A DNA stretch of 61,913 nt, counting the filler, from Hausera hauseri (Eukaryota), in the NCBI GenBank assembly GCA_046269625.1. It is 9 parts of 9 records of this genome, joined end to end, with 100 filler letters (N's around TTAATTAATTAA, not from the genome) between each part and the next. Parts side by side here need not be neighbours in the genome. Positions count along the whole stretch, not along the records: positions 1 to 17,282 come from JBJURY010222186.1; 8 more parts are not named here. One strand, 5' to 3'. Position numbers and translations under genes: made by a program. Shown here piece by piece: positions 1 through 29,643 of the stretch. The notes under the pieces were generated by a model. That model saw only the letters and a list, made by a program, of their open reading frames with translations, did not search any database and was not told where the DNA came from. Within the stretch, counting starts at the first letter, position 1. Every line of letters starts with the position of its first letter.

Positions 1-124
1 TGAATCTCTCCTTTTGCAAAAGCGTAAGATCTTCAAAATCTCACGAATTGTCTGGTTGGTCTGTTAATGTTGGTTAACGGGGATTGCTTGTGTTTAACTT
101 GAGCTTACAGAAAAATATCCAACA
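1..124 (+). repeat. 3' part (U5) of retroviral LTR; identical to contig end 17159-17282
   Basis: Ends ...ATCCAACA directly before the PBS; matches the last 124 nt of the LTR at 16698-17282. Confidence 0.95.
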
Positions 125-128
125 TTTC

Positions 129-147
129 TGGTGCCGCGACCCGGATT
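129..147 (+). promoter_or_regulatory. Primer binding site, tRNA-His type
   Basis: TGGTGCCGCGACCCGGATT, 4 nt after the LTR end; near-complement of the tRNA-His 3' end (TGGTGCCGTGACTCGGATT). Confidence 0.85.
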
Positions 148-330
148 GGACTTCATCCCACACTGACGGACGGACGGACGCGCCGCACCCAGTGCACGGG
201 CAGGCCCATTGGACCTGAAGGAAAGACTCGGAGGACTTCGTTTCTTCACGAGCCGGCGTTCTAGGTCCTCACTCCAACTGTCAGTGTCGGATTAGCTCCA
301 ATCCACACTTTGACAGACATCACAAGTCTG

Positions 331-336
331 GTGAGA
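331..336 (+). promoter_or_regulatory. Candidate major splice donor
   Basis: TG|GTGAGA; the equivalent position in unit B (~9948) is GTGAGT, and A/B leader similarity drops after it. Confidence 0.55.
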
Positions 337-951
337 TTATAATTACTTTCTTATGTTATGTATGAATGATCATTAAAGGGCAGAAAATTTTGATAAAAAC
401 ACTGTATAGAGGCAAATAAAACAAAGAAGAATATACAGGTTAAAGTCCTGTATTGTGTGGGTACCCAGTCCCGACACTAATTTAAATTAACAGGTTAAAG
501 TCCTGTTAAATTGTGTGGGTAATCAGTCCCGACACTGTGAAAAATAACAGGTTAGAGTCCTGTTTTATGTAACTGGTTAGAGTCCAGAAGTTATAGGTTT
601 AATATACAAACCTAGTCATCCTTATACTGTGTTGAAAATCTCGTGTTTGCCTGATAGTGAAGAGTGAATGTTTATGTATGATTGAGGGTGAAATAAATTA
701 TTGAGACAGATTGATGGTTCCTCCTGAAACCTAACGGTGTCAACATAAAGAGGGACTGTTTCTCTGACTACACCCTATTAAGGAAACAACTGGAACTTGT
801 CTGACCAACTTTAAGGAACTTCTCCTTGAACGGGTCACACAAACAGTTCCACATATATTAATAAAAATTGTATATTAAATTATCATAAAAAACGCAGAGT
901 ACTACCCATTACTAGAAGTCCATAATTAAAACCAAGTTTATATTGTTCACT

Positions 952-1219
952 CTGGATATACATATCCACCATAGTCTACCCCCATTTGACCCCTCCGATC
1001 CACATACTAGAGAATTATTATCTCTCATTACTCCTTATACAGTACTATTTAGTGTTACTAAATGAACGGCCTGATTTAAGACTAAGAATAAGAGTAAGGC
1101 CTTTAACTAATAGAGGCCCTTACAGAGGTTTAGGTGTAGTAAAAGTTGATTTAACTGACTCAAGACCCCGAGTTTTGCAACATTTTTCTTTTGTGTTCAG
1201 TCTATCAGGTTTAAACTAG
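952..1219 (+). pseudogene. Pre-gag accessory ORF, unit A copy, frameshifted by a 10-nt insertion (~1039-1048)
   Basis: Aligns at protein level with unit B 10507-10764; the length difference is exactly 10 nt. Confidence 0.75.
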
Positions 1220-1222
1220 AAA

Positions 1223-2689
1223 ATGGGAAAATCAGCAAGTAAGGTTGAAGGATTAGAAGGAGATGAAAAGTTTATGAATCAAAAACACCCTGGAAGTTGT
1301 ACTTTCAGGAATAAATGGTTAAAGGAAGGTATTAAACTTACACTAAAAGTAGAGACATGGCAAGGACAGGTCTCTAAGAAAGAAGCAGAAAAAGAGAAGG
1401 CAACAGGAAGTAAGAAAAAGAAGCTTGAAGAGGAAGTGCAGGCAGCGAGGCTGTGGTTAGACGAGTCTAAGAATAGAAGAGACCAAGTGAGAGCCTCTAA
1501 GGCTAGAAAGGATGAGGCGGCACTGATGGTCCGCCCTGAAGACAATGAAACACAGCTGAGGCACCGACAGACAGGTCTCCCTCAGAACAGCAAGACCCCT
1601 GTTACAGCTAGTGCCCCTAATGATACTGGACCCCCACCACCCCCCGGTAAAAAACATACAGATGATCCAACTCATGATTATAACACCCGCACCACTTCTA
1701 AAAAACTGACTGCCACCAGACAACTGGACATGACAGCCATGGTTGAACCACCCCCCTATGGACCAGAACCCTCTGAAAGACTATTTGGAAAAGGCGGATT
1801 GTACCCCCTGATTCAGGTGGCCAATCCCAACCCAAAAGAGGAGGACGGCCCTGGAGGGATGGTTCAATATGTGTTCAGACCTTGGACCTTAGCAGAAGCA
1901 CAGGCAGCAGTAGGAGGAGTTACCCCCCACAGAGAAGATGTAGAGAAGTGGGTAGAAGACATGACTCAGGTGCTCCACTCATACCGGTTAAATGGGTTCG
2001 AGGCAGGTCAAGCCTTGCAGTCCTCACTAGGGAAAGATTGGGCTAGGGTCAGAGGAGAATATACAGGAAGGGACAGAACGGGAACTCCCTTTGAGTATCG
2101 CACCACCCCAGATCCAAATGGAGCATTCTCACCTGATTATAGAGCTCAACTGATGGCCCTGTTCGATAGAGTAAGAGAAGCCTTCAAAAAGCGAGCTAAT
2201 TATGCTGAACTGCGCGCTGTGACACAGAAACCCAATGAACCAGTAGATGAATTCAGAGTCAGGTTTGAACAGGCTTTTAAATTACACAGCGGTATACAGT
2301 TTCAGGAAGACGATGACTCAGCATACCAACAGCAGCTCAAACAAGGCCTCTTAGATCAAGCAAAACCTAATCTAAGAACCTGGGTACAGACCCATTTTGT
2401 AAATTGGCCATCTGCAAGTGTTAGTCAGGCCATGGATTGGCTTAGACATGCAGAAAAGGTTAACCCTAAAGATGCAGGAACTTACTCTTTGAATCAATAC
2501 ACAGGAAGAGGACGAGGCAACAGGGGAGGTCCCAGAGGAAGGGGAAACATGGGATACAGGGGAGGCAGAGGAGGTAGAGGTTTTAAACCTAGAGGACAGC
2601 AGAACAATGAAGGCTGCTGGACGTGTGGCTCTCCAGACCACTGGTCCAGAGATTGCCCAAAAAACAACGGCCCCAAACAACAAGCATGA
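1223..2689 (+). CDS. gag: Gag polyprotein
   Basis: MGKSAS myristoylation signal, PPPY late domain, MHR-like QKPNEPVDEF, CCHC knuckle CWTCGSPDHWSRDC. Confidence 0.95.
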   Translation: MGKSASKVEGLEGDEKFMNQKHPGSCTFRNKWLKEGIKLTLKVETWQGQVSKKEAEKEKATGSKKKKLEEEVQAARLWLDESKNRRDQVRASKARKDEAALMVRPEDNETQLRHRQTGLPQNSKTPVTASAPNDTGPPPPPGKKHTDDPTHDYNTRTTSKKLTATRQLDMTAMVEPPPYGPEPSERLFGKGGLYPLIQVANPNPKEEDGPGGMVQYVFRPWTLAEAQAAVGGVTPHREDVEKWVEDMTQVLHSYRLNGFEAGQALQSSLGKDWARVRGEYTGRDRTGTPFEYRTTPDPNGAFSPDYRAQLMALFDRVREAFKKRANYAELRAVTQKPNEPVDEFRVRFEQAFKLHSGIQFQEDDDSAYQQQLKQGLLDQAKPNLRTWVQTHFVNWPSASVSQAMDWLRHAEKVNPKDAGTYSLNQYTGRGRGNRGGPRGRGNMGYRGGRGGRGFKPRGQQNNEGCWTCGSPDHWSRDCPKNNGPKQQA

Positions 2690-3625
2690 CTAGATCAGGA
2701 ACATGAAAACCCACCTACTAAACCAGATGTAGATGTTTATTCAGCATGGGCAGTTCTTAATGCTTTAAAGGAACAACCCTACATAGTTTTAAAGGTGGGT
2801 CAGACAAAGGTTGAATTCCTTTGTGACACAGGTGCATGCAGAACTGTGTTGAAAGACACAGTCCCAGAAATACAACTGTCTAAAAGCACCCTATGGGTCA
2901 GTTCAGCAAATGGACAAATGACTAAAGAATATTTGTCCAAACCCATATCAATTGTGGACCCAGAAACAAACATAACCAAATTTGCACCAATAATAGTCTC
3001 TCCTAAATGCCCCATAAATCTCCTAGGCAGAGACATGATGCAGAAATTAAAGCTTGCTATAGTGCCCACCCAACACGGTATGAGAGTCCACCGTGTAGAA
3101 TCAGTCTTTGTGCTAAATGATTCAGCCCCTACCATGTATGCTTCTCTAGATGTAGAAGCAAATAAGCAAACCAACCCTTTTGAGACGAGAGATCTGATAA
3201 ATGATGCAAAAAGCCAACTCTCCAACCCGCAGACAGAAATAGGTTACAACCATCTGCACGTGACCATGAAACTGTTGAATGACGCACAGGAAGCAAGCCT
3301 GTTTTCACAGTTGGCCCCAGTCACGATGGCAACAGATTATTTATACACAGACAGGTTCTCCTTTTCTGCTGCGAGTGTGCTGTTACCACAAATAATCAGT
3401 TCAGAATTTAACATGCAAAACTGCTCAGTTCCTCATCTCAGTCTGATGAAAGCTGACGATGCCAGCTGGAAAAACACAGGCCCCAGGTTAAAGACTGCAG
3501 CTACAGCCACAGACTGGGAACCAACACAAAATGAGTGGACATTCAGCCCCAGTTGTGGGCTGTGGCGCAAACCTCTGGTGCGAGTGCTTTATGCAGAGCC
3601 AAGGGTACACCCATTAAGTGACTGA
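2690..3625 (+). CDS. pro: Aspartic protease + 2H phosphoesterase-like domain (expressed by readthrough of the gag UGA)
   Basis: Open and in frame directly after the gag stop; FLCDTGA and NLLGRD protease motifs, then LHVTM and PHLSL (HxT/HxS) motifs. Confidence 0.9.
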   Translation, partial: LDQEHENPPTKPDVDVYSAWAVLNALKEQPYIVLKVGQTKVEFLCDTGACRTVLKDTVPEIQLSKSTLWVSSANGQMTKEYLSKPISIVDPETNITKFAPIIVSPKCPINLLGRDMMQKLKLAIVPTQHGMRVHRVESVFVLNDSAPTMYASLDVEANKQTNPFETRDLINDAKSQLSNPQTEIGYNHLHVTMKLLNDAQEASLFSQLAPVTMATDYLYTDRFSFSAASVLLPQIISSEFNMQNCSVPHLSLMKADDASWKNTGPRLKTAATATDWEPTQNEWTFSPSCGLWRKPLVRVLYAEPRVHPLSD

Positions 3626-6600
3626 CGGTGCGCAGCCCTACTATCTGATGAGGATGAGGAATTAATATCCAACTTACCTACATCCCTGTGGTCCCAAGGA
3701 CACTCAGATGTAGGGCTGTTGAACAGTATACCCCCCGTCAGGATCCAACCAAAAGGAACATTCAGACCAAGAATAAAACAATACCCATTAAAACCTGAGG
3801 CTGAAAATGGTGTTGCACCTGTCATACAAGATTTACTCAGAGCTGGAGTTATAAGACCATGTAACTCCTCTCCCTGCAACACACCCATTTTCCCAGTACA
3901 GAAAGCTGACAAACAATCATGGAGATTAGTGCAAGACTTAAGAGCAGTGAACCAAGCCATAATCTCCCGAGCCCCAAATGTGCCAGACCCACACACACTG
4001 TTGAACTCAGTACAAGCAGATTCACACTGGTTTACAGTTTTAGATCTGAGTAACGCTTTCTTTTCAGTTCCCATTCATCCAGACTCACAACACTGGTTTG
4101 CTTTCACTTTCAGAGGACAAAAATACACCTACACCAGATTGCCACAAGGCTTCACAGACAGCCCGACCATTTTTACAGAAGCAATAACTACATGTTTGCA
4201 AAATTTTACACCTAAACATAGCCAATTACTGGTCTACGTAGATGATCTTCTTCTCTGCTCAGACACAAAGGAACACTGCAGACAGGACTCTCTCTCTCTC
4301 TTAAAGTTTCTAGCAGAAACAGGAAACAAAGTAAGCAGGAAAAAGATGCAGTTTGTGCAGCCTGAGGTCATTTACTTAGGTCAAAGTATCTCAGCCTCGG
4401 GGAGGAAACTGCACACAGACAGACGAGAGAGCATTGCAAACGCTCCTAAACCTGAGACAAAGAAACAAATGATGCAATTTCTCGGTTTGTGCAATTATTG
4501 CAGAGCATGGGTGCCAGATTATGCAGGACACACACAGCCTTTGTTAGACATAATCTACTCTACACCCATGTCAATGAATCAAAAGATCATCTGGACTCCT
4601 GAAGCAGAAACAGCTTTCTGTAAAATAAAAGCCCTGCTGGTGCAAAGCACCTCACTGCTACTACCAGACTACTCAAAACCATTTGTGCAAATGGTAGATT
4701 GTAAAAACGGCTTTATGGTTTCAGTGCTAACACAGAAACATGGTGGGAAAAACAAGCCATTAGCATTCTACTCAAAACGCCTGGATCCAGTGGCAACGGC
4801 ACTGCCCCCTTGTGTCCAAGCAGTGTGCGCTGCAGCAATGGCAGTCCAGGCCTCGGCTGATGTGGTTCTGTTCCATGAAACAACACTGTTGGTTCCACAT
4901 GCTGTAGATGTTTTACTCTTACAAAGTAAATTGACAACCCTTTCTCCGGCCAGACAGATAACATACACTGCACTGTTGTTATCACAACCTCACATTACCA
5001 TCCAACGTTGCAATATTTTAAACCCTGCCACACTACTGCCGTGCCCAACTGATGGCAGCCCACACAATTGTGTGACAGAAGCAGACTCTTTGTCCCTGCC
5101 GAGACCTGATTTAAAAGATGTGCCGTTGTCATCAGGAAAAGTGTGGTTTGTTGATGGCTCATGTTCAAAAGCTCAGAATGGAAAAAACCTGTCAGGCTTT
5201 GCAGTAGTTGAACTGCCAAACACAGTAATCTATGCTGCTAAACTACCAGATCATTTCTCCGCCCAAGCAGCAGAAATCCAAGCTCTAACAAAAGCGTGTG
5301 AATTAGCTAAAGGGCAACAATTAACGGTGTATACTGACAGCCAGTATGCATTCTCAACCCTGTTCTATTTTGCAAAACAATGGGAGAGGCGTGGTATGAC
5401 CACATCCACAGGGAAACCTGTGACTCATGCGGCCCTATTAAAAGAGCTCTTAATGGCCATACATTTACCAGCTGCCCTAGCTGTGGTGAAGTGTGCAGCC
5501 CACCAAAAAGGTACAGATTTTGTAACCAGGGGCAACACCCTGGCTGACATAACTGCAAAGCAAGCAGCAGCAGGAGATTTCAACACGGACACACACCTCT
5601 CCTCCACCCAAGCCCCAGCCATTGATGATGACATTCTAAAAAATGCACAACTACTAGCGCCAAAACAGGAAATCCAATCATGGGTCAACAGAGGGGCGAC
5701 ACAGGCTGATGCCATATGGACACTAGATGGCAAACCCGTCCTTCCTAAGTCTCTTTTTAAAGCGGCTGCTGTGGCGACACATGGCCCTTGCCACGTGTCG
5801 ACAGGAGGGATGGTAGAAATAATAACCCAGTGGTTTACAACTATAGGGTTGGAAGGGTACCTTAAACAATTTTGTAAACAATGTGTGACGTGCATAAAAC
5901 ACAATCCACAGGGCAACATGAGACCAAAAAGAGGGGCCTTTCCAGCACCCTCATACCCTTTTCAAACCCTACACATGGACTTTATTGAACTAAATCAGAG
6001 TGGACCACACAGATACTGCTTGGTACTGATAGATGCATTTTCAAAATGGGTTGAAATAATACCCACAGCAAGACCAGATGCATTATCAGTAGCAAAAGCC
6101 ATTTGTAAAGACATTATCCCAGCTCACGGGATACCAGAAACCTTGTACTCAGACAATGGAACACACTTTGTAAATGAAATAGTACAAAATATGGCAGACC
6201 ATCTACAAATAAACTTGAAAAACCATTGTGCCTACCATCCACAAAGTGCTGGATTGGTAGAGAGAACAAATGGAACAATAAAAAGCCGTCTTAAAAAATG
6301 CATGGAAGAGACAGGGAGACCGTGGCCAGAATGTTTACCATTAGTAAAACTGTACATGAGGATCACACCATCTGCTGCAGGCCCAACACCTTTTGAAATA
6401 CTGTATGGAAGACCATACAGATTACCAGTGTTCGATTTAGACAGAGCACATGAAGAAAACACCCTGGCAGATTACATGATAAACACTTTTAAGCTAAAAG
6501 ATGTTCAGAATACAAATGTACTGCCCTCTGGTCCTTTGTCTCCACAGGAAACACCAGTAAAACCAGGAGACTGGGTGTTCATCAAAGTAATAAAAAAGAA

Positions 6601-6733
6601 ACACTGGAACAGCCCAAAGTGGGAGGGACCATATCAAGTGATCCTGACCACACCAACAGCAGTAAAAATCGCTGAAAGACCTTCATGGATACATCTCAGT
6701 CACTGTAAGTTGCAAAAAGTGCTCAGTCCATAG
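3626..6733 (+). CDS. pol: RT - RNase H - integrase (in frame after the second UGA)
   Basis: LPQG and YVDD (RT); WFVDGS and YTDSQY (RNase H); HHCC, D..D..E and GPY (IN); frame open from 3626. Confidence 0.95.
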   Translation, partial: RCAALLSDEDEELISNLPTSLWSQGHSDVGLLNSIPPVRIQPKGTFRPRIKQYPLKPEAENGVAPVIQDLLRAGVIRPCNSSPCNTPIFPVQKADKQSWRLVQDLRAVNQAIISRAPNVPDPHTLLNSVQADSHWFTVLDLSNAFFSVPIHPDSQHWFAFTFRGQKYTYTRLPQGFTDSPTIFTEAITTCLQNFTPKHSQLLVYVDDLLLCSDTKEHCRQDSLSLLKFLAETGNKVSRKKMQFVQPEVIYLGQSISASGRKLHTDRRESIANAPKPETKKQMMQFLGLCNYCRAWVPDYAGHTQPLLDIIYSTPMSMNQKIIWTPEAETAFCKIKALLVQSTSLLLPDYSKPFVQMVDCKNGFMVSVLTQKHGGKNKPLAFYSKRLDPVATALPPCVQAVCAAAMAVQASADVVLFHETTLLVPHAVDVLLLQSKLTTLSPARQITYTALLLSQPHITIQRCNILNPATLLPCPTDGSPHNCVTEADSLSLPRPDLKDVPLSSGKVWFVDGSCSKAQNGKNLSGFAVVELPNTVIYAAKLPDHFSAQAAEIQALTKACELAKGQQLTVYTDSQYAFSTLFYFAKQWERRGMTTSTGKPVTHAALLKELLMAIHLPAALAVVKCAAHQKGTDFVTRGNTLADITAKQAAAGDFNTDTHLSSTQAPAIDDDILKNAQLLAPKQEIQSWVNRGATQADAIWTLDGKPVLPKSLFKAAAVATHGPCHVSTGGMVEIITQWFTTIGLEGYLKQFCKQCVTCIKHNPQGNMRPKRGAFPAPSYPFQTLHMDFIELNQSGPHRYCLVLIDAFSKWVEIIPTARPDALSVAKAICKDIIPAHGIPETLYSDNGTHFVNEIVQNMADHLQINLKNHCAYHPQSAGLVERTNGTIKSRLKKCMEETGRPWPECLPLVKLYMRITPSAAGPTPFEILYGRPYRLPVFDLDRAHEENTLADYMINTFKLKDVQNTNVLPSGPLSPQETPVKPGDWVFIKVIKKKHWNSPKWEGPYQVILTTPTAVKIAERPSWIHLSHCKLQKVLSP
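6526..6548 (+). promoter_or_regulatory. Candidate env splice acceptor within IN
   Basis: Pyrimidine tract ...GTCCTTTGTCTCCACAG|G. Confidence 0.5.
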
Positions 6734-6910
6734 GAGAGGCTGTGGGGAAAGTCCTGGCTACAAAGGGGGGGTGAGCAATATAGAGGCACCTCGTCTCAAA
6801 CCAGGTGAACGTTCGATAGATCCCAGCCTCATTTTAGGCCTATGTGAGAGTGGTTTTGCAACTTAAGCAGTAATACCGAGCCTTTAAGGGGACGGCTTAT
6901 CTGTGTAGTG

Positions 6911-9124
6911 ATGGAGATTGCCATGGAAAGAATCATTGGACGGGCCCCTGTCCCACCACAGGACGAGGAGGACCCGGAACCAGAGGAAATGGTGCCAGAA
7001 ACCAGGCTCCAAAAATGGAGAAGAAGAACTGAACAATTCTTCTGGTTTGACGAGACCCCATGCTGGGTCTATTTGCTTTCATTTTTATTAAGTGCATGTT
7101 TGATGATTTTTCTAATGTTTAAGATTTTGTATCCTTTGATTGCAGGCCTTCCGATCCTCTCTCCTCCATGGACCACCCAGTCACATGACAGACCAAGGCG
7201 AACACTAGGGGTAGGAACACATAACTGGGCCATAGCAGGGAACAATCTGGTGAGACGCCACTTATGGAAAGCATCCTGTGTACGTCCTCAAACAAACATT
7301 ACAGTACAAGAAGGGACAACATCCACAGTTATGCTGGACCCGTGTCTTTATTTTCACTGTGATGACCCCAGGAAGTTAGGACATCCAGATATTTATGTAT
7401 GTGGAAAAAGGTTCTATGACAAACATGACTGCCCAAACTGTGATGCTTGGGACTACGCGTATTGGACCACATCACACAAAGATTGGGGGTATAAAATAGG
7501 TGAAGACAATAGCAACCTCAAAACCAGACTAACCATATGGAAAGTAAACTCTAGTTCACCTGCAGTAATGCTACAACTAAACAATGCTACTAAGAATGAC
7601 CAGGGTTTTTTCGTAGTCTGTGCCTATGTATCAGGAACCGACCCCTGCGCTCCTTTCTACTTGGAAGTTGTTAGCAAACCTGAAGAGGTAAAAAACCCCG
7701 TATATGTCCAACTAGGAGGTGGTGAGACTGAAACACATGTGCACCCGGAAGTAGACTCAGAACATCACTGGGCACACACCCCTATTTCTTTAAAAGGTAA
7801 CAAATGGTGGTCAGTACTGAGAAGCCTAACAGAGGCGGCAGGAGTTAATTCCTCTTGCTATGCCTGTACTCTATTTCCACATGACAATTTAGGAGCCATG
7901 CCAATAAGACCAGAACCCTTGCCTAAAAAACAGGTGGCCTGTACACTCCTAGCCTTGACCCCACCATTCCAATCCGCAGCAAATGGATGGAATGTGACCA
8001 GAAGTAACCTAACTGGGATATGTGCCAGTTTTGCAAACTTGACTGTAAGAACCAGTTCCAGTTTAAAGTTAAAAACCAAAGACATGCAGCTTTTTGCTCC
8101 CTTAGGATCTGTCCACCCCAAACACTTACAGATCACACACCCTGTTTGTTTTACCAGACCACTGACCAACAGAAGAGTTTTCATGGGACATGTTCAACAT
8201 TGTGAACAAATTTTTAATGCAACTTGTGGTGAGGCACCCTCAAACTTTTCAGATTGTTATGCAGGGACTCCTCAGGGCAAGGTTAATATCAGTACTCAGT
8301 TTAATCTTACACTCCCGGAAGCTGTAGCCATATGGCCCTCAGACTCTGGAGCTGGTAGCCTAAGGGGAAGTGTATGGTTGTGTGGGAACCACTATCATCA
8401 GGCTCTGCCTCCCATGTGGGCAGGGACCTGTGCTCTGGTGGAAATGAGACCCGCAGTGACATTAATGTCCTCTCTGGTGTACTCAACCCACCACTACCCC
8501 CACTACCGGATGCCTCCAAGCATGGACAGGAAAAAGAGGGATACTGTGGTCGTTTCGGGAGGAGCTAAATTCCTGTCAGGAATTTTGCCCTGGTGGGGAA
8601 CTGTAAACAACGCCCACCACATTGATAAATTGCACTTACAGTTAGAAAATTTGACTGCTTTAGTTGGTGATGGTTTCTCGGCTCTCACACCTTATCTGGC
8701 AGCCTCTAGGAACATGCTCACACAACACCAGATGGCTTTGGACATTTTGTTTGCCTCACAAGGAGGCTTATGTCACATCATAGGTGACTCATGCTGTACC
8801 TACTTACCCGACCCCACTGGAAATCTGACAGAGACTATTACACACTTAAACACCCTGCTTGCTACTATGAAGGAAGATGACGTACAGACGCCTGAGGGGT
8901 GGGACTGGTGGTCCTGGATGACGGGAGGTGGATGGAAAGCCTGGGCAGGCCGAATTGTGGTGCCTTTATTTTTCTTTCTACTATTAATTCTAATAATAGC
9001 TTGTTGTATTATTCCTGCTTTCAAGAAATGCATTGCTTCCATTTTTGTTCAGATGTTTTATCATCACATGCAACAGTATGCTCTTGTGGCTCAAGATGAG
9101 CCAGATGACAGCACTGCTGTTTAA
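6911..9124 (+). CDS. env: Envelope glycoprotein (gamma-type)
   Basis: N-terminal hydrophobic segment, CYAC (CXXC), RKKR furin site, fusion peptide, ISD-like QHQMALDILFASQGGLC, CX6CC, TM anchor; ATG at 6911. Confidence 0.95.
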   Translation: MEIAMERIIGRAPVPPQDEEDPEPEEMVPETRLQKWRRRTEQFFWFDETPCWVYLLSFLLSACLMIFLMFKILYPLIAGLPILSPPWTTQSHDRPRRTLGVGTHNWAIAGNNLVRRHLWKASCVRPQTNITVQEGTTSTVMLDPCLYFHCDDPRKLGHPDIYVCGKRFYDKHDCPNCDAWDYAYWTTSHKDWGYKIGEDNSNLKTRLTIWKVNSSSPAVMLQLNNATKNDQGFFVVCAYVSGTDPCAPFYLEVVSKPEEVKNPVYVQLGGGETETHVHPEVDSEHHWAHTPISLKGNKWWSVLRSLTEAAGVNSSCYACTLFPHDNLGAMPIRPEPLPKKQVACTLLALTPPFQSAANGWNVTRSNLTGICASFANLTVRTSSSLKLKTKDMQLFAPLGSVHPKHLQITHPVCFTRPLTNRRVFMGHVQHCEQIFNATCGEAPSNFSDCYAGTPQGKVNISTQFNLTLPEAVAIWPSDSGAGSLRGSVWLCGNHYHQALPPMWAGTCALVEMRPAVTLMSSLVYSTHHYPHYRMPPSMDRKKRDTVVVSGGAKFLSGILPWWGTVNNAHHIDKLHLQLENLTALVGDGFSALTPYLAASRNMLTQHQMALDILFASQGGLCHIIGDSCCTYLPDPTGNLTETITHLNTLLATMKEDDVQTPEGWDWWSWMTGGGWKAWAGRIVVPLFFFLLLILIIACCIIPAFKKCIASIFVQMFYHHMQQYALVAQDEPDDSTAV

Positions 9125-9143
9125 ACACCCTCTTTTACAGCTT

Positions 9144-9157
9144 AAACAGGAGGGATA
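9144..9157 (+). promoter_or_regulatory. Polypurine tract
   Basis: AAACAGGAGGGATA immediately before the LTR TG (again at 16684-16697). Confidence 0.85.
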
Positions 9158-9742
9158 TGTAAAGGATTTTCCTTTACATTATATTTTATTATTACTTGTT
9201 TATTCATTAAAGTATCTGTTTTTTAGTTAAGCTGTTTTACAGAGTGTGTGTGTGCTGTGAAAGGTCGTCTGCAGGTCGTCTGCAGTATCAAGCCAGCCAG
9301 TACTTCCTGTTAATCTTTTTTGAGATGCAGCTGTGAGCGGTTGCCGAACCTCGTACGAGATCGAGACATCAGACCACACTCTGCTCCAAAACATGTTTGT
9401 CATGCCCATATTTAGTCATGGAACGCGATGTATCTAAACGTTTCTTTGCATTCTATTAATATATATTTTGCTCATATATTATAACCACCACCCAGCAACA
9501 GTAAAAGTAACTTCTTTGCTGATTGGTGGTTTTTCACTTCCTGTTGTGAATAAAAACGATCACGCCGAGCCCCGAGGTCAGAGCTTCGATACATCAGCTG
9601 CCGTTAAGTTGAGTATTCTGAATCTCTCCTTTTGCAAAAGCGTAAGATCTTCAAAATCTCACGAATTGTCTGGTTGGTCTGTTAATGTTGGTTAATGGGG
9701 ATCGCTTGTGTTTAACTTGAGCTTACAGGAAAATATCCAACA
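9158..9742 (+). repeat. LTR (585 bp) shared between units A and B
   Basis: TGT...ACA termini, PPT before and PBS after; differs from the terminal LTR at 3 positions in U5. Confidence 0.95.
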
Positions 9743-9746
9743 TTTC

Positions 9747-9764
9747 TGGTGCCGTGACCCGGAT
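9747..9764 (+). promoter_or_regulatory. Primer binding site, tRNA-His type
   Basis: TGGTGCCGTGACCCGGAT after the LTR. Confidence 0.88.
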
Positions 9765-10506
9765 GGAATTCATCCTACACTGACGGGCAGACAGGACGCG
9801 CCGAACCCAGTGCACGGGCGGGTCCCCCGAACCTGAAAGAAAGCCTCGGAGGACTTCGTTTCTTCACGAGCCGGCGTTCTAGGTCCAAACTCCAACTGTC
9901 AGTGTCGGATGAACTTCCATCCACACTGTGACAGACGACAGACATTAGTGAGTATAAAATTGTGAACTTGTATGAATGATTTGAAAGAAAAGTGAAACAA
10001 GGGACAAGTATACACGGGGAAACAGAGAGTACAGGATAGGATCCTGGTACTGTGTGGGTTAAAGACCCGACACTTTAGAGTGGATCGAATTTTTAGTACG
10101 GAAAACTAGTTCGAGTCCAGGTCTAAAAATAAGAAAGTTTTTGAGTGGTTAATCCACAAGATAAAATTTTAAAAGTTAAACCCCGGTCCCGTTGTTAACA
10201 GAATTGTGCGTGTATGATTTGTACAAATGAGATGTGTATGAATGAGGGGAACTAAGAATTGGACTGGTGGTTCGTCCTGAAACCTGACGGTGTCAACATA
10301 CAGACGGACTACTTCTCCATTTCGGACCCTATTAAGGAGAATTTTAGGAGACTGAGACAGAATTTAATTCAAAATATTTGGATGAACCTGTCTATGTCTC
10401 ACATATATTAATAACATCACATATAAATTAATAAAACAACCAATAAATACGCAGAGTACTATTAAAGAATTACAATTTTAAATGATCACAGATTCCTAAA
10501 TTTATA

Positions 10507-10764
10507 CTGGAGTTACACGTCCATAGGCAACTTCCTCGTTTTGACCCACAAAACCCTCATACACGCGAATTACTTGATTTACTCCAACCCTATTTAGAGT
10601 TACTAAGAGAACGCCCTGAGTGTAAACTCTGTATTAAAATAAGACCTCTCACGCCTAGAGGTTTATACAGAGGATTAGGAGTTGTAAAAGTGGATTTAAT
10701 AGATCCAGTACAAGGAATTACGCAGCATTATTCTTTTGTATTTAGTTTAACAGGATTAAACTAG
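10507..10764 (+). CDS. Pre-gag accessory protein, 85 aa, putative CUG start (absent from ORF track)
   Basis: ATA-CTG-G start; LELHVHRQLPRFDPQNPHTRELLDLLQPYLELLRERPECKLCIKIRPLTPRGLYRGLGVVKVDLIDPVQGITQHYSFVFSLTGLN*; conserved with unit A through synonymous and conservative changes. Confidence 0.7.
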   Translation: MELHVHRQLPRFDPQNPHTRELLDLLQPYLELLRERPECKLCIKIRPLTPRGLYRGLGVVKVDLIDPVQGITQHYSFVFSLTGLN

Positions 10765-10767
10765 AAA

Positions 10768-12240
10768 ATGGGAAAATCGGCAAGTAAGGTTGAAGGATTA
10801 GAAGGAGATGAGAAGTTTATGAATCAAAAACACCCTGGAAGCTGTACTTTCAGAAACAAATGGTTGAAAGAAGGAATTAAACTTACCTTGAAAGTAGAGA
10901 CATGGCAGGGTCAGGTCTCTAAGAAAGAAGCAGAAAAAGAGAAGGCGACAGGAAGTAAGAAAAAGAAACTTGAGGAGGAAGTGCAGACAGCGAGGCTGTG
11001 GTTAGACGAGTCTAAAATTAGAAGAGACCAAGTGAGAGCCTCTAAGGCTAGAAAGGACGAGGCGGCCCTACTGGTTCGCCCTGAAGATAATGAAACACAA
11101 CTGAGACGCCGCCAGCCAGGCCCCCCACATGGCAGTAAGACCCCTGTTACAGCCAGTGCCCCTGAAGCCACTGACCCTCCTCCACCCCCTGATAAACAAC
11201 CAGATGACCCGTCCCATGATTACAACACCCGTACCACTTCCAAAAAATTGACTGCCACCCGACAACTGAACATGACAGCTATGATCGAACCACCCCCTTA
11301 CGGACCAGAGCCCTCTGAAACACCATTTGGGAAGGGTGGATTGTACCCCCTGATCCAGGTGGCCAATCCCAACCCAAAAGAGGAGGATGGGCCTGAGGGG
11401 ATGGTCCAATACGTATTTAGACCATGGACACTGGCAGAAGCACAAGCAGCAGTGGGAGGAGTGACTCCCCACAGGGAAGATACAGAGAAGTGGGTAGAAG
11501 ACATGACCCAGGTACTTCACTCATACCGGTTGAACGGGTTTGAGGCAGGTCAGGCTCTACAGTCCTCATTAGGGAAAGATTGGGCTAGGGTCAGAGGCGA
11601 TTATACAGGCAGGGACAGAGTAGGAACCCCTTTTGAGTACCGCACCACACCAGATCCAAATGGAGCATTCCCTCCTGACTATAAAGCTCAGTTGATGGCC
11701 CTGTTTGATAGGGTGAGAGAGGCTTTCAAAAAACGTGCAAATTATGCCGAACTACGGGCAGTAACACAAAGACCCAGTGAGCCAGTAGATGAGTATAGGG
11801 TTAGGTTTGAGCAGGCCTTTAAATTACACAGCGGCATACAATTTCAGGAAGGAGATGACTCAGCATACCAACAGCAGCTCAAACAAGGCCTCCTAGACCA
11901 AGCAAAACCTAATCTGAGAACTTGGGTTCAAACCCATTTTGTGAACTGGCCCTCTGCAAGTGTTAGTCAGGCCATGGACTGGCTTAGACATGCTGAAAAA
12001 GTTAACCCTAAGGATGCAGGTACTTACTCTCTAAACCAACCTCAATACACAGGGAGAGGAAGAGGTAACAGAAGAGGATTTAGAGGCAGAGGAGGCAGAG
12101 GATTTAAACCCACCAGGCCCCAAACAAACAGATTTAGAGGACCTCAAGGCAACAGCGACGGCTGCTGGACTTGTGGTTCTCCTGACCATTGGGCCAAGAA
12201 CTGTCCAAAAAATACAAGCAAAACTAATCCACAAGCATGA
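10768..12240 (+). CDS. gag: Gag polyprotein (diverged variant)
   Basis: Intact paralog of 1223-2689 with many synonymous differences. Confidence 0.95.
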   Translation: MGKSASKVEGLEGDEKFMNQKHPGSCTFRNKWLKEGIKLTLKVETWQGQVSKKEAEKEKATGSKKKKLEEEVQTARLWLDESKIRRDQVRASKARKDEAALLVRPEDNETQLRRRQPGPPHGSKTPVTASAPEATDPPPPPDKQPDDPSHDYNTRTTSKKLTATRQLNMTAMIEPPPYGPEPSETPFGKGGLYPLIQVANPNPKEEDGPEGMVQYVFRPWTLAEAQAAVGGVTPHREDTEKWVEDMTQVLHSYRLNGFEAGQALQSSLGKDWARVRGDYTGRDRVGTPFEYRTTPDPNGAFPPDYKAQLMALFDRVREAFKKRANYAELRAVTQRPSEPVDEYRVRFEQAFKLHSGIQFQEGDDSAYQQQLKQGLLDQAKPNLRTWVQTHFVNWPSASVSQAMDWLRHAEKVNPKDAGTYSLNQPQYTGRGRGNRRGFRGRGGRGFKPTRPQTNRFRGPQGNSDGCWTCGSPDHWAKNCPKNTSKTNPQA

Positions 12241-13170
12241 CTAGATCATGAAACCCCGCCCACCAAACCGGATGTGGATGTTTATTCAGCATGGACAGTC
12301 CTTAATGCTTTAAAAGAACAACCCTACATAGTTTTAAAGGTGGGCCAAACAAAAGTTGAGTTTCTTTGTGATACAGGTGCATGCAGAACTGTGTTAAAAG
12401 ACACAGTTCCAGAAATACAGTTGTCCAACAGCACCCTATGGGTCAGTTCTGCAAATGGACAAATGACCAAGGAATATCTGTCTAAACCTATATCAATTGT
12501 GGACCCGGAAACGAACATAACTAAAACCGCACCAATAATAGTCTCCCCCAAGTGTCCAATAAATCTACTGGGGCGAGACATGATGCAAAAACTAAAACTG
12601 GCCATAGTGCCCACCAAAAATGGAATGAGGGCCCACCGTGTAGAATCAGTTTTTGTACTTCACGATTCATCACCCACCATGTATGCATCTTTAGATGTAG
12701 AAGCAAATAAACAAGCTAATCCTTTTGAGACAAGAGATCTGATCAATGACGGAAAAAGACAACTCTCACACCCACAGACAGAAATAGGTTACAATCATCT
12801 GCACGTGACCATGAAACTGTTAAACGATGCACAGGAAGCAAGCCTGTTTTCACAGCTGGCCCCAGTCACGATGGCAACAGACTATTTATACACAGACAGG
12901 TTCTCCTTTTCGGCTGCGAGTGTGCTGTTACCACAAATAATCAGTTCAGAATTTAACATGCAGAACTGTTCAGTTCCCCACCTCAGTCTTATGAAACCTG
13001 AGGACTCCAGTTGGAAAAACACAGGCCCGAGATTAAAAACTGCAGCCGCTGCCACAGACTGGGAACAATCACAAAGTGAGTGGACATTCAGCCCCAGTTG
13101 TGGACTATGGCGGAAACCTCTAGTAAGAGTGCTTTATGCAGAACCAAAAGTACACCCATTAAGTGACTGA
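12241..13170 (+). CDS. pro: Protease + 2H phosphoesterase-like domain (readthrough)
   Basis: Same motifs as unit A; bounded by TGA-CTAG and TGA-CGG. Confidence 0.9.
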   Translation, partial: LDHETPPTKPDVDVYSAWTVLNALKEQPYIVLKVGQTKVEFLCDTGACRTVLKDTVPEIQLSNSTLWVSSANGQMTKEYLSKPISIVDPETNITKTAPIIVSPKCPINLLGRDMMQKLKLAIVPTKNGMRAHRVESVFVLHDSSPTMYASLDVEANKQANPFETRDLINDGKRQLSHPQTEIGYNHLHVTMKLLNDAQEASLFSQLAPVTMATDYLYTDRFSFSAASVLLPQIISSEFNMQNCSVPHLSLMKPEDSSWKNTGPRLKTAAAATDWEQSQSEWTFSPSCGLWRKPLVRVLYAEPKVHPLSD

Positions 13171-14273
13171 CGGTGCGCGGCCCTACTATCTGATGAGGAT
13201 GAGAAATTAATATCCAATCATGGGTCAACAGAGGGGCGACACAGGCTGATGCCATATGGACACTGGATGGCAAACCCGTCCTTCCTAAGTCTCTTTTTAA
13301 AGCGGCTGCTGTGGCGACACATGGCCCTTGCCACGTGTCGACAGGAGGGATGGTAGAAATAATAACCCAGTGGTTTACAACTATAGGGTTGGAAGGGTAC
13401 CTTAAACAATTTTGTAAACAATGTGTGACGTGCATAAAACACAATCCACAGGGCAACATGAGACCAAAAAGAGGGGCCTTTCCAGCACCCTCATACCCTT
13501 TTCAAACCCTACACATGGACTTTATTGAACTAAATCAGAGTGGACCACACAGATACTGCTTGGTACTGATAGATGCATTTTCAAAATGGGTTGAAATAAT
13601 ACCCACAGCAAGACCAGATGCATTATCAGTAGCAAAAGCCATTTGTAAAGACATTATCCCAGCTCACGGGATACCAGAAACCTTGTACTCAGACAATGGA
13701 ACACACTTTGTAAATGAAATAGTACAAAATATGGCAGACCATCTACAAATAAACTTGAAAAACCATTGTGCCTACCATCCACAAAGTGCTGGATTGGTAG
13801 AGAGAACAAATGGAACAATAAAAAGCCGTCTTAAAAAATGCATGGAAGAGACAGGGAGACCGTGGCCAGAATGTTTACCATTAGTAAAACTGTACATGAG
13901 GATCACACCATCTGCTGCAGGCCCAACACCTTTTGAAATACTGTATGGAAGACCATACAGATTACCAGTGTTCGATTTAGACAGAGCACATGAAGAAAAC
14001 ACCCTGGCAGATTACATGATAAACACTTTTAAGCTAAAAGATGTTCAGAATACAAATGTACTGCCCTCTGGTCCTTTGTCTCCACAGGAAACACCAGTAA
14101 AACCAGGAGACTGGGTGTTCATCAAAGTAATAAAAAAGAAACACTGGAACAGCCCAAAGTGGGAGGGACCATATCAAGTGATCCTGACCACACCAACAGC
14201 AGTAAAAATCGCTGAAAGACCTTCATGGATACATCTCAGTCACTGTAAGTTGCAAAAAGTGCTCAGTCCATAG
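13171..14273 (+). pseudogene. pol: pol remnant: RT/RNase H deleted, integrase out of frame
   Basis: Junction at ATCCAA (13212-13217) joins unit-A equivalents 3667-3672 and 5672-5677. Confidence 0.9.
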
Positions 14274-14450
14274 GAGAGGCTGTGGGGAAAGTCCTGGCTA
14301 CAAAGGGGGGGTGAGCAATATAGAGGCACCTCGTCTCAAACCAGGTGAACGTTCGATAGATCCCAGCCTCATTTTAGGCCTATGTGAGAGTGGTTTTGCA
14401 ACTTAAGCAGTAATACCGAGCCTTTAAGGGGACGGCTTATCTGTGTAGTG

Positions 14451-16664
14451 ATGGAGATTGCCATGGAAAGAATCATTGGACGGGCCCCTGTCCCACCACA
14501 GGACGAGGAGGACCCGGAACCAGAGGAAATGGTGCCAGAAACCAGGCTCCAAAAATGGAGAAGAAGAACTGAACAATTCTTCTGGTTTGACGAGACCCCA
14601 TGCTGGGTCTATTTGCTTTCATTTTTATTAAGTGCATGTTTGATGATTTTTCTAATGTTTAAGATTTTGTATCCTTTGATTGCAGGCCTTCCGATCCTCT
14701 CTCCTCCATGGACCACCCAGTCACATGACAGACCAAGGCGAACACTAGGGGTAGGAACACATAACTGGGCCATAGCAGGGAACAATCTGGTGAGACGCCA
14801 CTTATGGAAAGCATCCTGTGTACGTCCTCAAACAAACATTACAGTACAAGAAGGGACAACATCCACAGTTATGCTGGACCCGTGTCTTTATTTTCACTGT
14901 GATGACCCCAGGAAGTTAGGACATCCAGATATTTATGTATGTGGAAAAAGGTTCTATGACAAACATGACTGCCCAAACTGTGATGCTTGGGACTACGCGT
15001 ATTGGACCACATCACACAAAGATTGGGGGTATAAAATAGGTGAAGACAATAGCAACCTCAAAACCAGACTAACCATATGGAAAGTAAACTCTAGTTCACC
15101 TGCAGTAATGCTACAACTAAACAATGCTACTAAGAATGACCAGGGTTTTTTCGTAGTCTGTGCCTATGTATCAGGAACCGACCCCTGCGCTCCTTTCTAC
15201 TTGGAAGTTGTTAGCAAACCTGAAGAGGTAAAAAACCCCGTATATGTCCAACTAGGAGGTGGTGAGACTGAAACACATGTGCACCCGGAAGTAGACTCAG
15301 AACATCACTGGGCACACACCCCTATTTCTTTAAAAGGTAACAAATGGTGGTCAGTACTGAGAAGCCTAACAGAGGCGGCAGGAGTTAATTCCTCTTGCTA
15401 TGCCTGTACTCTATTTCCACATGACAATTTAGGAGCCATGCCAATAAGACCAGAACCCTTGCCTAAAAAACAGGTGGCCTGTACACTCCTAGCCTTGACC
15501 CCACCATTCCAATCCGCAGCAAATGGATGGAATGTGACCAGAAGTAACCTAACTGGGATATGTGCCAGTTTTGCAAACTTGACTGTAAGAACCAGTTCCA
15601 GTTTAAAGTTAAAAACCAAAGACATGCAGCTTTTTGCTCCCTTAGGATCTGTCCACCCCAAACACTTACAGATCACACACCCTGTTTGTTTTACCAGACC
15701 ACTGACCAACAGAAGAGTTTTCATGGGACATGTTCAACATTGTGAACAAATTTTTAATGCAACTTGTGGTGAGGCACCCTCAAACTTTTCAGATTGTTAT
15801 GCAGGGACTCCTCAGGGCAAGGTTAATATCAGTACTCAGTTTAATCTTACACTCCCGGAAGCTGTAGCCATATGGCCCTCAGACTCTGGAGCTGGTAGCC
15901 TAAGGGGAAGTGTATGGTTGTGTGGGAACCACTATCATCAGGCTCTGCCTCCCATGTGGGCAGGGACCTGTGCTCTGGTGGAAATGAGACCCGCAGTGAC
16001 ATTAATGTCCTCTCTGGTGTACTCAACCCACCACTACCCCCACTACCGGATGCCTCCAAGCATGGACAGGAAAAAGAGGGATACTGTGGTCGTTTCGGGA
16101 GGAGCTAAATTCCTGTCAGGAATTTTGCCCTGGTGGGGAACTGTAAACAACGCCCACCACATTGATAAATTGCACTTACAGTTAGAAAATTTGACTGCTT
16201 TAGTTGGTGATGGTTTCTCGGCTCTCACACCTTATCTGGCAGCCTCTAGGAACATGCTCACACAACACCAGATGGCTTTGGACATTTTGTTTGCCTCACA
16301 AGGAGGCTTATGTCACATCATAGGTGACTCATGCTGTACCTACTTACCCGACCCCACTGGAAATCTGACAGAGACTATTACACACTTAAACACCCTGCTT
16401 GCTACTATGAAGGAAGATGACGTACAGACGCCTGAGGGGTGGGACTGGTGGTCCTGGATGACGGGAGGTGGATGGAAAGCCTGGGCAGGCCGAATTGTGG
16501 TGCCTTTATTTTTCTTTCTACTATTAATTCTAATAATAGCTTGTTGTATTATTCCTGCTTTCAAGAAATGCATTGCTTCCATTTTTGTTCAGATGTTTTA
16601 TCATCACATGCAACAGTATGCTCTTGTGGCTCAAGATGAGCCAGATGACAGCACTGCTGTTTAA
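14451..16664 (+). CDS. env: Envelope glycoprotein, same protein as unit A
   Basis: Identical translation in the ORF track. Confidence 0.95.
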   Translation: MEIAMERIIGRAPVPPQDEEDPEPEEMVPETRLQKWRRRTEQFFWFDETPCWVYLLSFLLSACLMIFLMFKILYPLIAGLPILSPPWTTQSHDRPRRTLGVGTHNWAIAGNNLVRRHLWKASCVRPQTNITVQEGTTSTVMLDPCLYFHCDDPRKLGHPDIYVCGKRFYDKHDCPNCDAWDYAYWTTSHKDWGYKIGEDNSNLKTRLTIWKVNSSSPAVMLQLNNATKNDQGFFVVCAYVSGTDPCAPFYLEVVSKPEEVKNPVYVQLGGGETETHVHPEVDSEHHWAHTPISLKGNKWWSVLRSLTEAAGVNSSCYACTLFPHDNLGAMPIRPEPLPKKQVACTLLALTPPFQSAANGWNVTRSNLTGICASFANLTVRTSSSLKLKTKDMQLFAPLGSVHPKHLQITHPVCFTRPLTNRRVFMGHVQHCEQIFNATCGEAPSNFSDCYAGTPQGKVNISTQFNLTLPEAVAIWPSDSGAGSLRGSVWLCGNHYHQALPPMWAGTCALVEMRPAVTLMSSLVYSTHHYPHYRMPPSMDRKKRDTVVVSGGAKFLSGILPWWGTVNNAHHIDKLHLQLENLTALVGDGFSALTPYLAASRNMLTQHQMALDILFASQGGLCHIIGDSCCTYLPDPTGNLTETITHLNTLLATMKEDDVQTPEGWDWWSWMTGGGWKAWAGRIVVPLFFFLLLILIIACCIIPAFKKCIASIFVQMFYHHMQQYALVAQDEPDDSTAV

Positions 16665-16697
16665 ACACCCTCTTTTACAGCTTAAACAGGAGGGATA

Positions 16698-17282
16698 TGT
16701 AAAGGATTTTCCTTTACATTATATTTTATTATTACTTGTTTATTCATTAAAGTATCTGTTTTTTAGTTAAGCTGTTTTACAGAGTGTGTGTGTGCTGTGA
16801 AAGGTCGTCTGCAGGTCGTCTGCAGTATCAAGCCAGCCAGTACTTCCTGTTAATCTTTTTTGAGATGCAGCTGTGAGCGGTTGCCGAACCTCGTACGAGA
16901 TCGAGACATCAGACCACACTCTGCTCCAAAACATGTTTGTCATGCCCATATTTAGTCATGGAACGCGATGTATCTAAACGTTTCTTTGCATTCTATTAAT
17001 ATATATTTTGCTCATATATTATAACCACCACCCAGCAACAGTAAAAGTAACTTCTTTGCTGATTGGTGGTTTTTCACTTCCTGTTGTGAATAAAAACGAT
17101 CACGCCGAGCCCCGAGGTCAGAGCTTCGATACATCAGCTGCCGTTAAGTTGAGTATTCTGAATCTCTCCTTTTGCAAAAGCGTAAGATCTTCAAAATCTC
17201 ACGAATTGTCTGGTTGGTCTGTTAATGTTGGTTAACGGGGATTGCTTGTGTTTAACTTGAGCTTACAGAAAAATATCCAACA
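16698..17282 (+). repeat. LTR (585 bp)
   Basis: Copy of 9158-9742, preceded by the PPT. Confidence 0.95.
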
Positions 17283-22453: not shown

Positions 22454-23779
22454 GTGGCGACAGAACGAGTACCAATTAGACTAGTGAATAATGCACCAAC
22501 TCCCGTAAGGTTGCATGCCAATTCTACATTGGGCCATACTTATAAGATGTCAGCGATAACAATCGAAGAAAAACCATACAAATGTGCTGAATTTCCACCT
22601 CACGTCGAAACTAAATTTTCACCAGAAGTATATTGACAGTTTTATTAACTATTATGCAAATACCAGTCGGTTATTGCCCAAAATGAAGAAGATATAGGCA
22701 GAGCAAAAGCCCTAAGGCTAACAATCCCACTAAAAAAGAAACTTGGCTCCAATGACTAAATCGATTTGGAAGGGCAAAAGGTGCCCAAATGGTACCCACC
22801 ACCTCATTCATTGATGTCCGAAATAACTAAAGAGATAGAACGCATGTTCAAAGCCAACATAATACGACCAAGCTACCTATCTTGGTATTCACAAATACTC
22901 ATGGTTAAAAAGAAAAATACCACTAAACATAGATTCTGTATAGATTACCGAGCTCTAAACACTCTTATGATGAAGGACTCATTTCCACTACCGTCAGTAA
23001 AGGAAGCATTAGATAGATTATCAGGAGAAAAATGGTTTACCACACTGGACTTACAATCCGGATACTGGCAAGTAGAAATTGAAGAAGACGATTGTTACAA
23101 AACAGCGTTTAAGACGCACGACGGAGTTTACGAATTTAACGTCATTCCGTTCGGTATAAACACCGACCCAGCTATCTTCACCAGAATGATGAATAAAATG
23201 CTAATGGGACTCGATCGTGCATTTGCATACTTAGGCGATATAATGATAGCATCAAGAACAGAAGAAGAACACCTAAAGGACATCGAAGACACTCTCATGC
23301 GGTTGGAACAAGCAGAATTAAAACTGAACCCAAAGAAATGTAAATGGGCACAAAATACTGTATAATATCTCGGACATATAGTTGGAGAAGGAGGGTCAAA
23401 ACCAGATAAATCTTTACTAAACAAAATATCGGATTGTATAGAACCCCAGAACCAAAAAGAATTAAAACATTGGTTAGGCTTATGTGGATATTATGCAACT
23501 TATGTGCCAGACAATTCAAAAATAAATGCGCCGTTATATGGGCTATTGAAAAAAGGTATCAAATGGAAATGGACCGATGTCGAACAGAAAGCTTTCGACG
23601 AAATGAAAAAAATTCTAACAAATGAACCGGTGTTGAGATACCCAAATTTTAATTTACCATTTATAATTAAAACAGACTCAAGTAAAGAATGAATTGGTTA
23701 CGAGTTAGTTCAGAAAAGAGAAGACGAAGAAGTGGAACACTCAATTGCATACAGAGGACGATTGCTGAAGAAAGCCGAA
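22454..23779 (+). pseudogene. Ty3/Gypsy pol fragment (RT, start of RNase H)
   Basis: RFCIDYRALN, LDLQSGYWQV, AYLGD (decayed YLDD), FIIKTD; internal stops and frameshifts. Confidence 0.9.
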
Positions 23780-29543: not shown

Positions 29544-29643
29544 NNNNNNNNNNNNNNNNNNNNNNNNNNNNNNNNNNNNNNNNNNNNTTAATTAATTAAN
29601 NNNNNNNNNNNNNNNNNNNNNNNNNNNNNNNNNNNNNNNNNNN

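Follow-up and report, generated by a model that had tools for sequence, protein, structure and literature searches.

Two successive in-frame UGA codons separate gag, pro and pol in an endogenous retrovirus (ERV) that occupies the first 17.3 kb of the window, by which we mean the whole stretch of 61,913 nucleotides analysed here (Hausera hauseri, assembly GCA_046269625.1; positions 1-17,282 come from JBJURY010222186.1). From comparison of related sequences we consider it probable that both codons are read through one after the other in this fish ERV, which would yield Gag >> Gag-Pro-2H >> Gag-Pro-2H-Pol, where 2H denotes a phosphoesterase domain encoded between the protease and the reverse transcriptase (RT). 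The retroviral region consists of two tandem units, A and B, with a common middle long terminal repeat (LTR, 9158-9742), and all of its features described below lie on the + strand. In unit A, gag, protease-2H and the RT-RNase H-integrase region are interrupted only by TGA 2687-2689 and TGA 3623-3625, and the stop-to-stop open reading frames (ORFs) 1220-2689, 2690-3625 and 3626-6733 abut, all in one frame. This confirms the arrangement given in an earlier note made from the sequence alone, which had proposed double readthrough with a three-tier output. The contexts of the stops, a predicted stem 3' of the second one and a distant relative (L028) with both UGAs lend support to that proposal. 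We take the host of the element to be a teleost, as the close homologues for which a name is given are proteins of fish.

Context and conservation of the two stops

The gag ORF of unit A (1223-2689, 488 codons) contains a CCHC zinc knuckle and ends at stop 1, a UGA followed by CUAG (2687-2693). Stop 2, a UGA followed by CGG (3623-3628), is located four codons upstream of the presumed RT start and is followed by the pol ORF of 1035 codons (3626-6733), which encodes RT, tether, RNase H and integrase. Both stops and their contexts are the same in unit B, where gag (10768-12240) terminates in TGA-CTAG at 12238-12240 and pro-2H (12241-13170) in TGA-CGG at 13168-13170. UGACUA and UGACGG are described as type II readthrough hexamers, of which the UGACGG cases require a 3' stem, and readthrough of about 1.3% or more is given for UGACUAG in human genes (PMC13517186). 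A type II hexamer is present at each stop in both units, in line with the leaky contexts that had been assigned to them beforehand. The + strand of unit A contains 168 TGA trinucleotides, of which CTAG follows one (the gag stop), CTA three and CGG three, and TGACTAG accounts for 2 of the 1197 TGAs in the whole window, both being the gag stops. The probability of two type II contexts arising by chance is about 0.1%.

Between units A and B the synonymous divergence (dS) is 0.70 in gag and 0.59 in pro-2H, with ratios of nonsynonymous to synonymous divergence (dN/dS) of 0.065 and 0.053, respectively, and the leader-gag-pro regions are 85% identical. Stop 1 lies within a 16-nt island which is identical in A and B; the sequence upstream of the island aligns poorly, and a 6-nt indel borders its other side. 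The last 21 codons compared across stop 2 contain a single synonymous difference, whereas the total is 82 in 321. Since both stops and their contexts were kept across this divergence at a dN/dS of about 0.05 to either side of stop 1, they are, to judge from the alignment, not decay mutations, and the corresponding claim of the earlier note stands.

The same dS and dN/dS values indicate that the 5' part of unit B is a real, long-diverged lineage under selection. In a comparison that covered contigs of four of the 22 listed sequencing runs, contigs from two other runs carry many of the unit B substitutions (comparison up to position 3074), and stop 2 is crossed by two contigs from other sequencing runs with no gap nearby. 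The previous use of unit B as a diverged witness is thus upheld for the 5' part with both stops and not for a second whole virus. Unit B is a mosaic without RT and RNase H: at its junction (13206-13217) the sequence restarts out of frame at the equivalent of A-5672 with a 6-nt microhomology, and its integrase, env and 3' LTR (13212-17282) show only four differences from A in 4071 nt. It informs on both stops and on the first 41 nt 3' of stop 2, not on the stem there. Unit B, which ends at an assembly gap, may have arisen by recombination or as a chimera of the assembly.

Near-identical copies of the element were seen in several organisms, as five of the 22 listed sequencing runs, with different organism codes, contain at least half of its words (1200-6800). 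There was no RNA run among the 22 listed runs that share words with the element.

The second stop among homologous proteins

A profile of ten Pro-2H sequences, searched against representatives of 50%-identity clusters, retrieved 727 proteins at E 0.001 or better, and the best 150 of these 727 were combined with earlier hits to a set of 154 proteins. Seventy-seven of them match through the end of the 2H domain, and 68 of these 77 terminate between -8 and +12 residues from stop 2; of the remaining nine, seven continue into RT and two have their ends at +18 and +76. Three of the other 77 are likewise RT-fused, and the rest are decayed copies, fragments or proteins that have no 2H. We placed these forms in a quick tree of protease-2H with 71 rows, from which nine proteins short at the N-terminus and those that end at +18 and +76 were omitted. 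All ten RT-fused proteins fall within one clade of 12 (Shimodaira-Hasegawa-like approximate likelihood ratio test, SH-aLRT, 98), and all 59 rows outside it, including A and B, terminate at the stop-2 position. As the rows were preselected as ending at stop 2 or being RT-fused, the tree gives the placement of both kinds and not their frequency. Sense codons at the second site in close homologues had been named in advance as the outcome that would speak against double readthrough; what was found is that close and distant homologues end there, and that the sense-codon forms (RT-fused or one-stop) lie on branches other than that of A. Judged by these comparisons, the second stop is a family trait.

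Dipeptides encoded by -1 slippery heptamers occur in 20 of 65 homologue tails compared to 272 of 713 background windows, i.e. without enrichment, and no sign of a -1 frameshift at the 2H/RT junction is apparent from these tails. A first search for longer, fused homologues found none; some were found later by the profile search, so the initial negative result is not evidence.

Two proteins, P0023 and P0029, were considered as gag-pro fusions without stop 1, which would have a stop-2-only layout, and were rejected because the zinc knuckle or the catalytic motif is missing at the join and both are eukaryotic gene models. The eukaryotic gene models P0009, P0023, P0029, P0175 and P0177 are joined from gag, pro or RT pieces without the surroundings of a stop; these stops appear to be bypassed in annotation by splicing.

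DNA relatives and RT phylogeny

The metagenome contig L028 is a distant relative of unit A (Gag 23%, Pro 40% and Pol 55% identical) without a 2H domain. Its gag, pro and pol share a frame in which gag ends in UGA-CUAG and UGA-CAA-ACA separates protease from RT, and the distance from the second stop to the first conserved RT Trp is 21 codons in L028 and 22 in A. Seven of the eight proteins in the L028 cluster run to the second stop. Because L028 has both UGAs and no 2H domain, the second stop belongs to the pro/RT boundary and not to the 2H insertion.

One-stop relatives are also found at the DNA level, namely L014 and L005 (both with gag UGA-GGA), L001 (UGA-AGA), L057 (UAG) and L059 (UAG), and there is no stop between protease and RT in L055 and L056. 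In L001 protease, 2H, RT, RNase H and integrase form one ORF of 1387 codons, and its RT lies on another branch than that of A. Seven of 38 metagenome loci are real relatives (L005, L010, L014, L016, L021, L028 and L031); L010, L021 and L031 are too decayed or short for scoring both junctions, and L016 is decayed and has no stop at the 2H/RT junction. A Pro-2H protein locus search gave no match in viral contigs, a metagenome search with a six-row Pro-2H alignment gave no match, and 15 loci in prokaryote genomes from a pattern scan were discarded, as they showed no retroviral match beyond the pattern itself. The 2H domain and the second stop vary independently among these loci: L028 (832-1332) has two UGAs and no 2H, and L001 and L014 have 2H and one stop.

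In a quick RT tree of 37 rows unit A falls within a clade of 12 (SH-aLRT 99) together with ten protease-less database proteins and one gene model. L028 and the clade of the one-stop L014 join the A clade at an unresolved fork (91), and the second stop may either have been gained once and then lost in the L014 clade or have been gained twice. Two protease-less Pol proteins are also located near L001, which makes 'Pol without protease' a weak label. There is one close Pol homologue, P0168, whose starting Met falls roughly on the codon that follows the stop-2 position, and several others start a few codons later.

The element has the features of a class I (gamma/epsilon-like) ERV, i.e. LTR, primer-binding site, gag, pro, pol, env, polypurine tract and LTR, with retroviral protease, RT, RNase H, integrase and a gamma-type env. 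Its RT stands apart from the L055-L057 clade (99) and does not group with walleye dermal sarcoma virus (WDSV) and walleye epidermal hyperplasia virus (WEHV). The primer-binding site is WDSV-like: that of unit B (9747-9764) is identical to the L057 site, from which that of unit A (129-146) deviates by one mismatch, the same single base by which the two units differ. We take this site to be complementary to tRNA-His and L057 (12,708 nt), by its size and layout, to be WDSV-like.

The domain between protease and RT

The structural model of the 311-residue middle ORF has a pLDDT of 91.9. Its first half is the retroviral aspartic protease (2768-3061; PF00077, E 4.6e-13), which matches the protease of xenotropic murine leukaemia virus-related virus (XMRV) with Z 13.5. 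The second half (3110-3616) matches mouse CNPase with Z 14.6 (root mean square deviation 4.5, 158 aligned), and further 2H enzymes follow below CNPase at Z 6-8. Only proteases were among the matches listed by Foldseek and by a sequence search of solved structures; the 2H matches were revealed by a wide structure search. Both HxT/S motifs (H190 and H249 of the ORF) are intact in unit A, and in 65 aligned rows H190 is present in 61, T192 in 57, H249 in 60 and S251 in 58, i.e. both motifs are kept in about nine of ten rows. On the strength of the modelled fold we assign the domain to the 2H phosphoesterase superfamily, with a CNPase-like fold, and the label that the earlier note had given it is borne out by the CNPase match. 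A CNPase-like domain in fish retroviruses is already known, as epsilon-like teleost ERVs with a CNPase reading frame have been reported (PMC4977317, citing Basta et al. 2009). Since viral 2H enzymes appear in the same match list, one might guess that the domain acts against host nucleotide signals.

Predicted RNA structure behind the stops

A stem-loop is predicted 3' of stop 2 in unit A (3633-3718, +8 to +93), with a 7-nt spacer, 9 bp, a 1-nt 5' bulge and 6 bp. Its first nine pairs have predicted probabilities of 0.96-1.0, the folding window that starts at stop 2 has the lowest energy of 45 windows along gag-pro-pol, and only 0.7% of synonymous codon draws give 8/8 pairs. In its predicted dimensions (7-nt spacer, 15 bp, 1-nt 5' bulge, 93-nt span) the stem is closely similar to the element of Venezuelan equine encephalitis virus (VEEV), in which UGA-CGG is followed by an 8-9 nt spacer and a stem of 11-12 bp with a 1-nt 5' bulge and stimulation is 10- to 14-fold, and to that of furoviruses, with a 7-nt spacer and a 96-nt span (PMC3159437). 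L028 is capable of 8/8 pairs in the codon register of A, four of them changed on both sides, as are 2% of synonymous draws; this same-register pairing is a hint only of a conserved stem. A full partner for the same stem arm was absent in all four one-stop or decayed loci tested.

Behind stop 1 a long stem-loop is weakly predicted (2709-2800), which starts 20 nt after the stop and has a similar fold in B. Its folding z-scores are -1.9 to -2.5 in A and -1.8 in B at 120 nt, and near 0 at 100 nt. L028 has a different hairpin at +7 of stop 1 (z -1.7).

Two windows in the integrase-coding region (6023-6142 and 6383-6502) also have low folding z-scores of -5.2 and -3.5 (30 shuffles each), and possibly represent a cis-acting RNA structure upstream of env.

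Proposed expression and alternatives

Translation of the unspliced RNA would start at the gag AUG, and UGA-CUAG would terminate most ribosomes and release Gag. A few percent would insert an amino acid at stop 1 and produce Gag-Pro-2H, mostly ending at UGA-CGG, and a few percent of those would read through stop 2, aided by the stem-loop that begins 8 nt further on, to give Gag-Pro-2H-Pol. Through the resulting three tiers, RT and integrase would be outnumbered by the protease and the CNPase-like enzyme, with all of them brought into the particle on Gag. In unit A the first in-frame AUG is codon 77 in pro, which lies beyond the catalytic DTG, and codon 241 in pol. As there is no AUG before the pro motif or pol codon 241 and the frame is unchanged, neither independent AUG initiation nor a frameshift explains the expression.

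Several points weigh against this proposal. Two leaky stops in series yield little Pol, by our estimate roughly 0.1-1% of Gag at 3-10% each. The 68 homologues that end at stop 2 are known as proteins, which give no view of the stop codon, its context or the pol frame, and DNA with pol in frame behind stop 2 is limited to three sequences (A, B and L028), of which L028 has a second context that is not a type II hexamer. The stop-2 stem is firmly predicted only in A; B is without the 3' arm, and the same-register pairs of L028 have a probability of about 0 in the predicted ensemble, and a register slid by 6 nt gives 7/8. At stop 1 the stem begins 18-20 nt away compared to 7-12 nt in known cases, and 8 of the 45 gag-pro-pol windows reach a z-score of -1.9 or lower, so that the z-scores alone are modest. 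Moreover, the annotation of several close Pol homologues begins with a Met just behind the stop-2 position, in one case with the first codon.

The low yield of two leaky stops would be avoided if only stop 1 were read through and Pol came from a spliced mRNA that skips stop 2 by joining an upstream AUG exon to the RT start. Foamy viruses make Pol from spliced RNA, and in both A and B a purine-AG (GAG) with 63% pyrimidines upstream lies 26-27 nt after stop 2. However, the sole CAG near stop 2 of A (9-10 nt after it, with 42% pyrimidines upstream) is lost in B, and a spliced message has no need for a pol in the pro frame, for the C after UGA in A, B and L028, or for a stem 8 nt behind the stop; we regard this route as unlikely. 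The annotated starts could also point to termination at stop 2, with reinitiation or internal initiation of Pol just after it, as 6 of 12 protease-less Pol homologues have their annotated Met 17-21 residues ahead of the first conserved RT Trp and one more has it at 13. Such starts are, however, selected for, because a database protein cannot begin with anything but a Met or an alternative start, and in five of the 12 the start lies further downstream. An AUG is absent from this place in A, B and L028, and Pol made freely would be without the Gag handle that orthoretroviruses use to package it, which leaves a new start of this kind improbable.

That both stops are UGA and near predicted structure would also suit recoding by A-to-I editing or as selenocysteine instead of near-cognate readthrough. 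The stop-2 codon is not part of the firm stem, though, which starts 3' of it; the contexts are those of readthrough, and no selenocysteine insertion sequence (SECIS) or other RNA family was detected in the stop element at Rfam thresholds; we give such recoding slightly less credit still than a new start. Decay, finally, could be suspected because unit B is defective and one-stop relatives exist, with stop 2 being either a mutation in a dead provirus or the mark of a non-autonomous lineage with an unexpressed pol. Yet the pol of A is open for 1035 codons, and stop 2 is common to lineages separated by a dS of 0.6 and to 68 of the 77 homologues, whose clusters are less than 50% identical, and this is the explanation we believe least. 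Routes other than those named here seem hardly more probable than decay.

Extending double readthrough from this element to its relatives, we lean, with less confidence than for the element itself, towards a large overlooked radiation of fish retroviruses that uses this scheme. In these viruses the second stop would put the protease and a captured CNPase-like phosphodiesterase, which possibly acts on host nucleotide signals or RNA ends, above the polymerase, and it would have been gained or lost between sister lineages.

Relation to known systems

A UGA at the gag/pro junction has already been reported for epsilon-like retroviruses of fish and amphibians (UGAAGA, UGACGA and UGAAGU; the swim bladder sarcoma virus of salmon (SSSV), zebrafish endogenous retrovirus (ZFERV) and a toad ERV). 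The same 2026 review of readthrough in animal viruses gives gamma- and epsilonretroviruses one stop, at this junction, and states that there is no epsilonretrovirus for which readthrough has been verified (PMC13517186). Its available text makes no mention of 'double readthrough' or a 'second stop', and a 2025 review of retroviruses gives double recoding only as two frameshifts in the part at hand (PMC12789967). A term search for a second stop returned none in the available text of PMC3835772, PMC8672886, PMC2684134, PMC8278194, PMC9016899, PMC4616055, PMC4977317 and PMC5009743 (first 300,000 characters). We found no description of a two-stop retroviral layout in the literature searched; the original papers on SSSV, ZFERV, the toad ERV and the CNPase-ERVs, or Repbase, may mention the stop. 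The layout as a whole had been put forward as one not known to be described, and this needs to be narrowed: the second stop is new as far as we found, and only the second stop, since the gag/pro UGA of fish and frog retroviruses is not.

L001 has the gag stop UGA-AGA as given for SSSV and, like unit A, a 2H domain between protease and RT; it differs from A in having one stop instead of two. In WDSV (Epsilonretrovirus) and Moloney murine leukaemia virus (MLV; Gammaretrovirus) gag and pro-pol are in one frame and joined by readthrough, as would be the case in A. They differ from A, as does L057, in having one UAG and a protease that leads straight into RT with no 2H, and MLV relies on a pseudoknot. 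The single termination suppression that characterizes Epsilonretrovirus does not describe unit A, with its two in-frame stops compared to one in L057. For the CNPase-carrying teleost ERVs, which have the CNPase frame as in A, the review that cites them is silent on stops or expression (PMC4977317). Betaretroviruses carry a dUTPase within pro (PMC8278194), a placement similar to that of the 2H enzyme in unit A. Beta- and deltaretroviruses (mouse mammary tumour virus, Mason-Pfizer monkey virus, human T-cell leukaemia virus) use two -1 frameshifts over three frames, whereas A has one frame with stops at the junctions, and double readthrough may be seen as the counterpart of the two frameshifts in output only. 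The hexamers of A are shared with alphaviruses (VEEV, Sindbis), a coltivirus and furoviruses, where, 3' of UGA-CGG or UGA-CUA, an extended stem follows at 7-12 nt. Those unrelated viruses have, however, one readthrough per polyprotein, and the second site of furoviruses is in a different gene. Ordinary type II signals are apparently used twice in one retroviral polyprotein here, and this across a broad fish clade.

If double readthrough holds, it would join spliced pol, single readthrough and the use of one or two frameshifts as a further basic scheme of retroviral expression, and the three-tier ratio of beta- and deltaretroviruses would have been reached independently by another mechanism. 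If widespread, a two-readthrough scheme would supply the case that is missing beside the one readthrough, or one or two frameshifts, that the reviews consulted give for orthoretroviral Gag-Pro-Pol (PMC13517186, PMC12789967). Dozens of diverged natural readthrough signals would become available for the study of context and 3' structure versus efficiency. Besides, such elements look dead on account of the second in-frame stop, and the count of fish ERVs that are coding-competent may be too low.

Other features of the window

Unit A begins with the 3' end of its 5' LTR (1-124), which is truncated by the start of the window and is identical to 17159-17282. Its env ORF (6848-9124) encodes a gamma-type coat (PF00429); the part at 6848-7260 is a long N-terminal region with an acidic and proline-rich stretch ahead of a hydrophobic segment. 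No accessory ORF of at least 100 codons was present on the + strand in the leader or between env and LTR, shorter ones being outside this search.

No tRNA genes were found in the window. Between 40911 and 48865 there are several ORFs of 224-417 codons, three of which were scanned and gave no Pfam match at E 0.01; those at 45932-48865 presumably resemble pieces of a Polinton-type DNA polymerase. Two AT-rich ORFs of 346 and 286 codons lie at 57893-60719, the second without a Pfam match. A LINE-type reverse transcriptase (PF00078) is spread over two frames at 29592-31992, and a fragment of eukaryotic large-subunit rRNA is located at 39838-40237. Two inverted fragments, 22458-23750 and 52459-53744, are 82% identical, and an ORF that has a reverse transcriptase match, which we take to be Gypsy-like, overlaps with the first of them.

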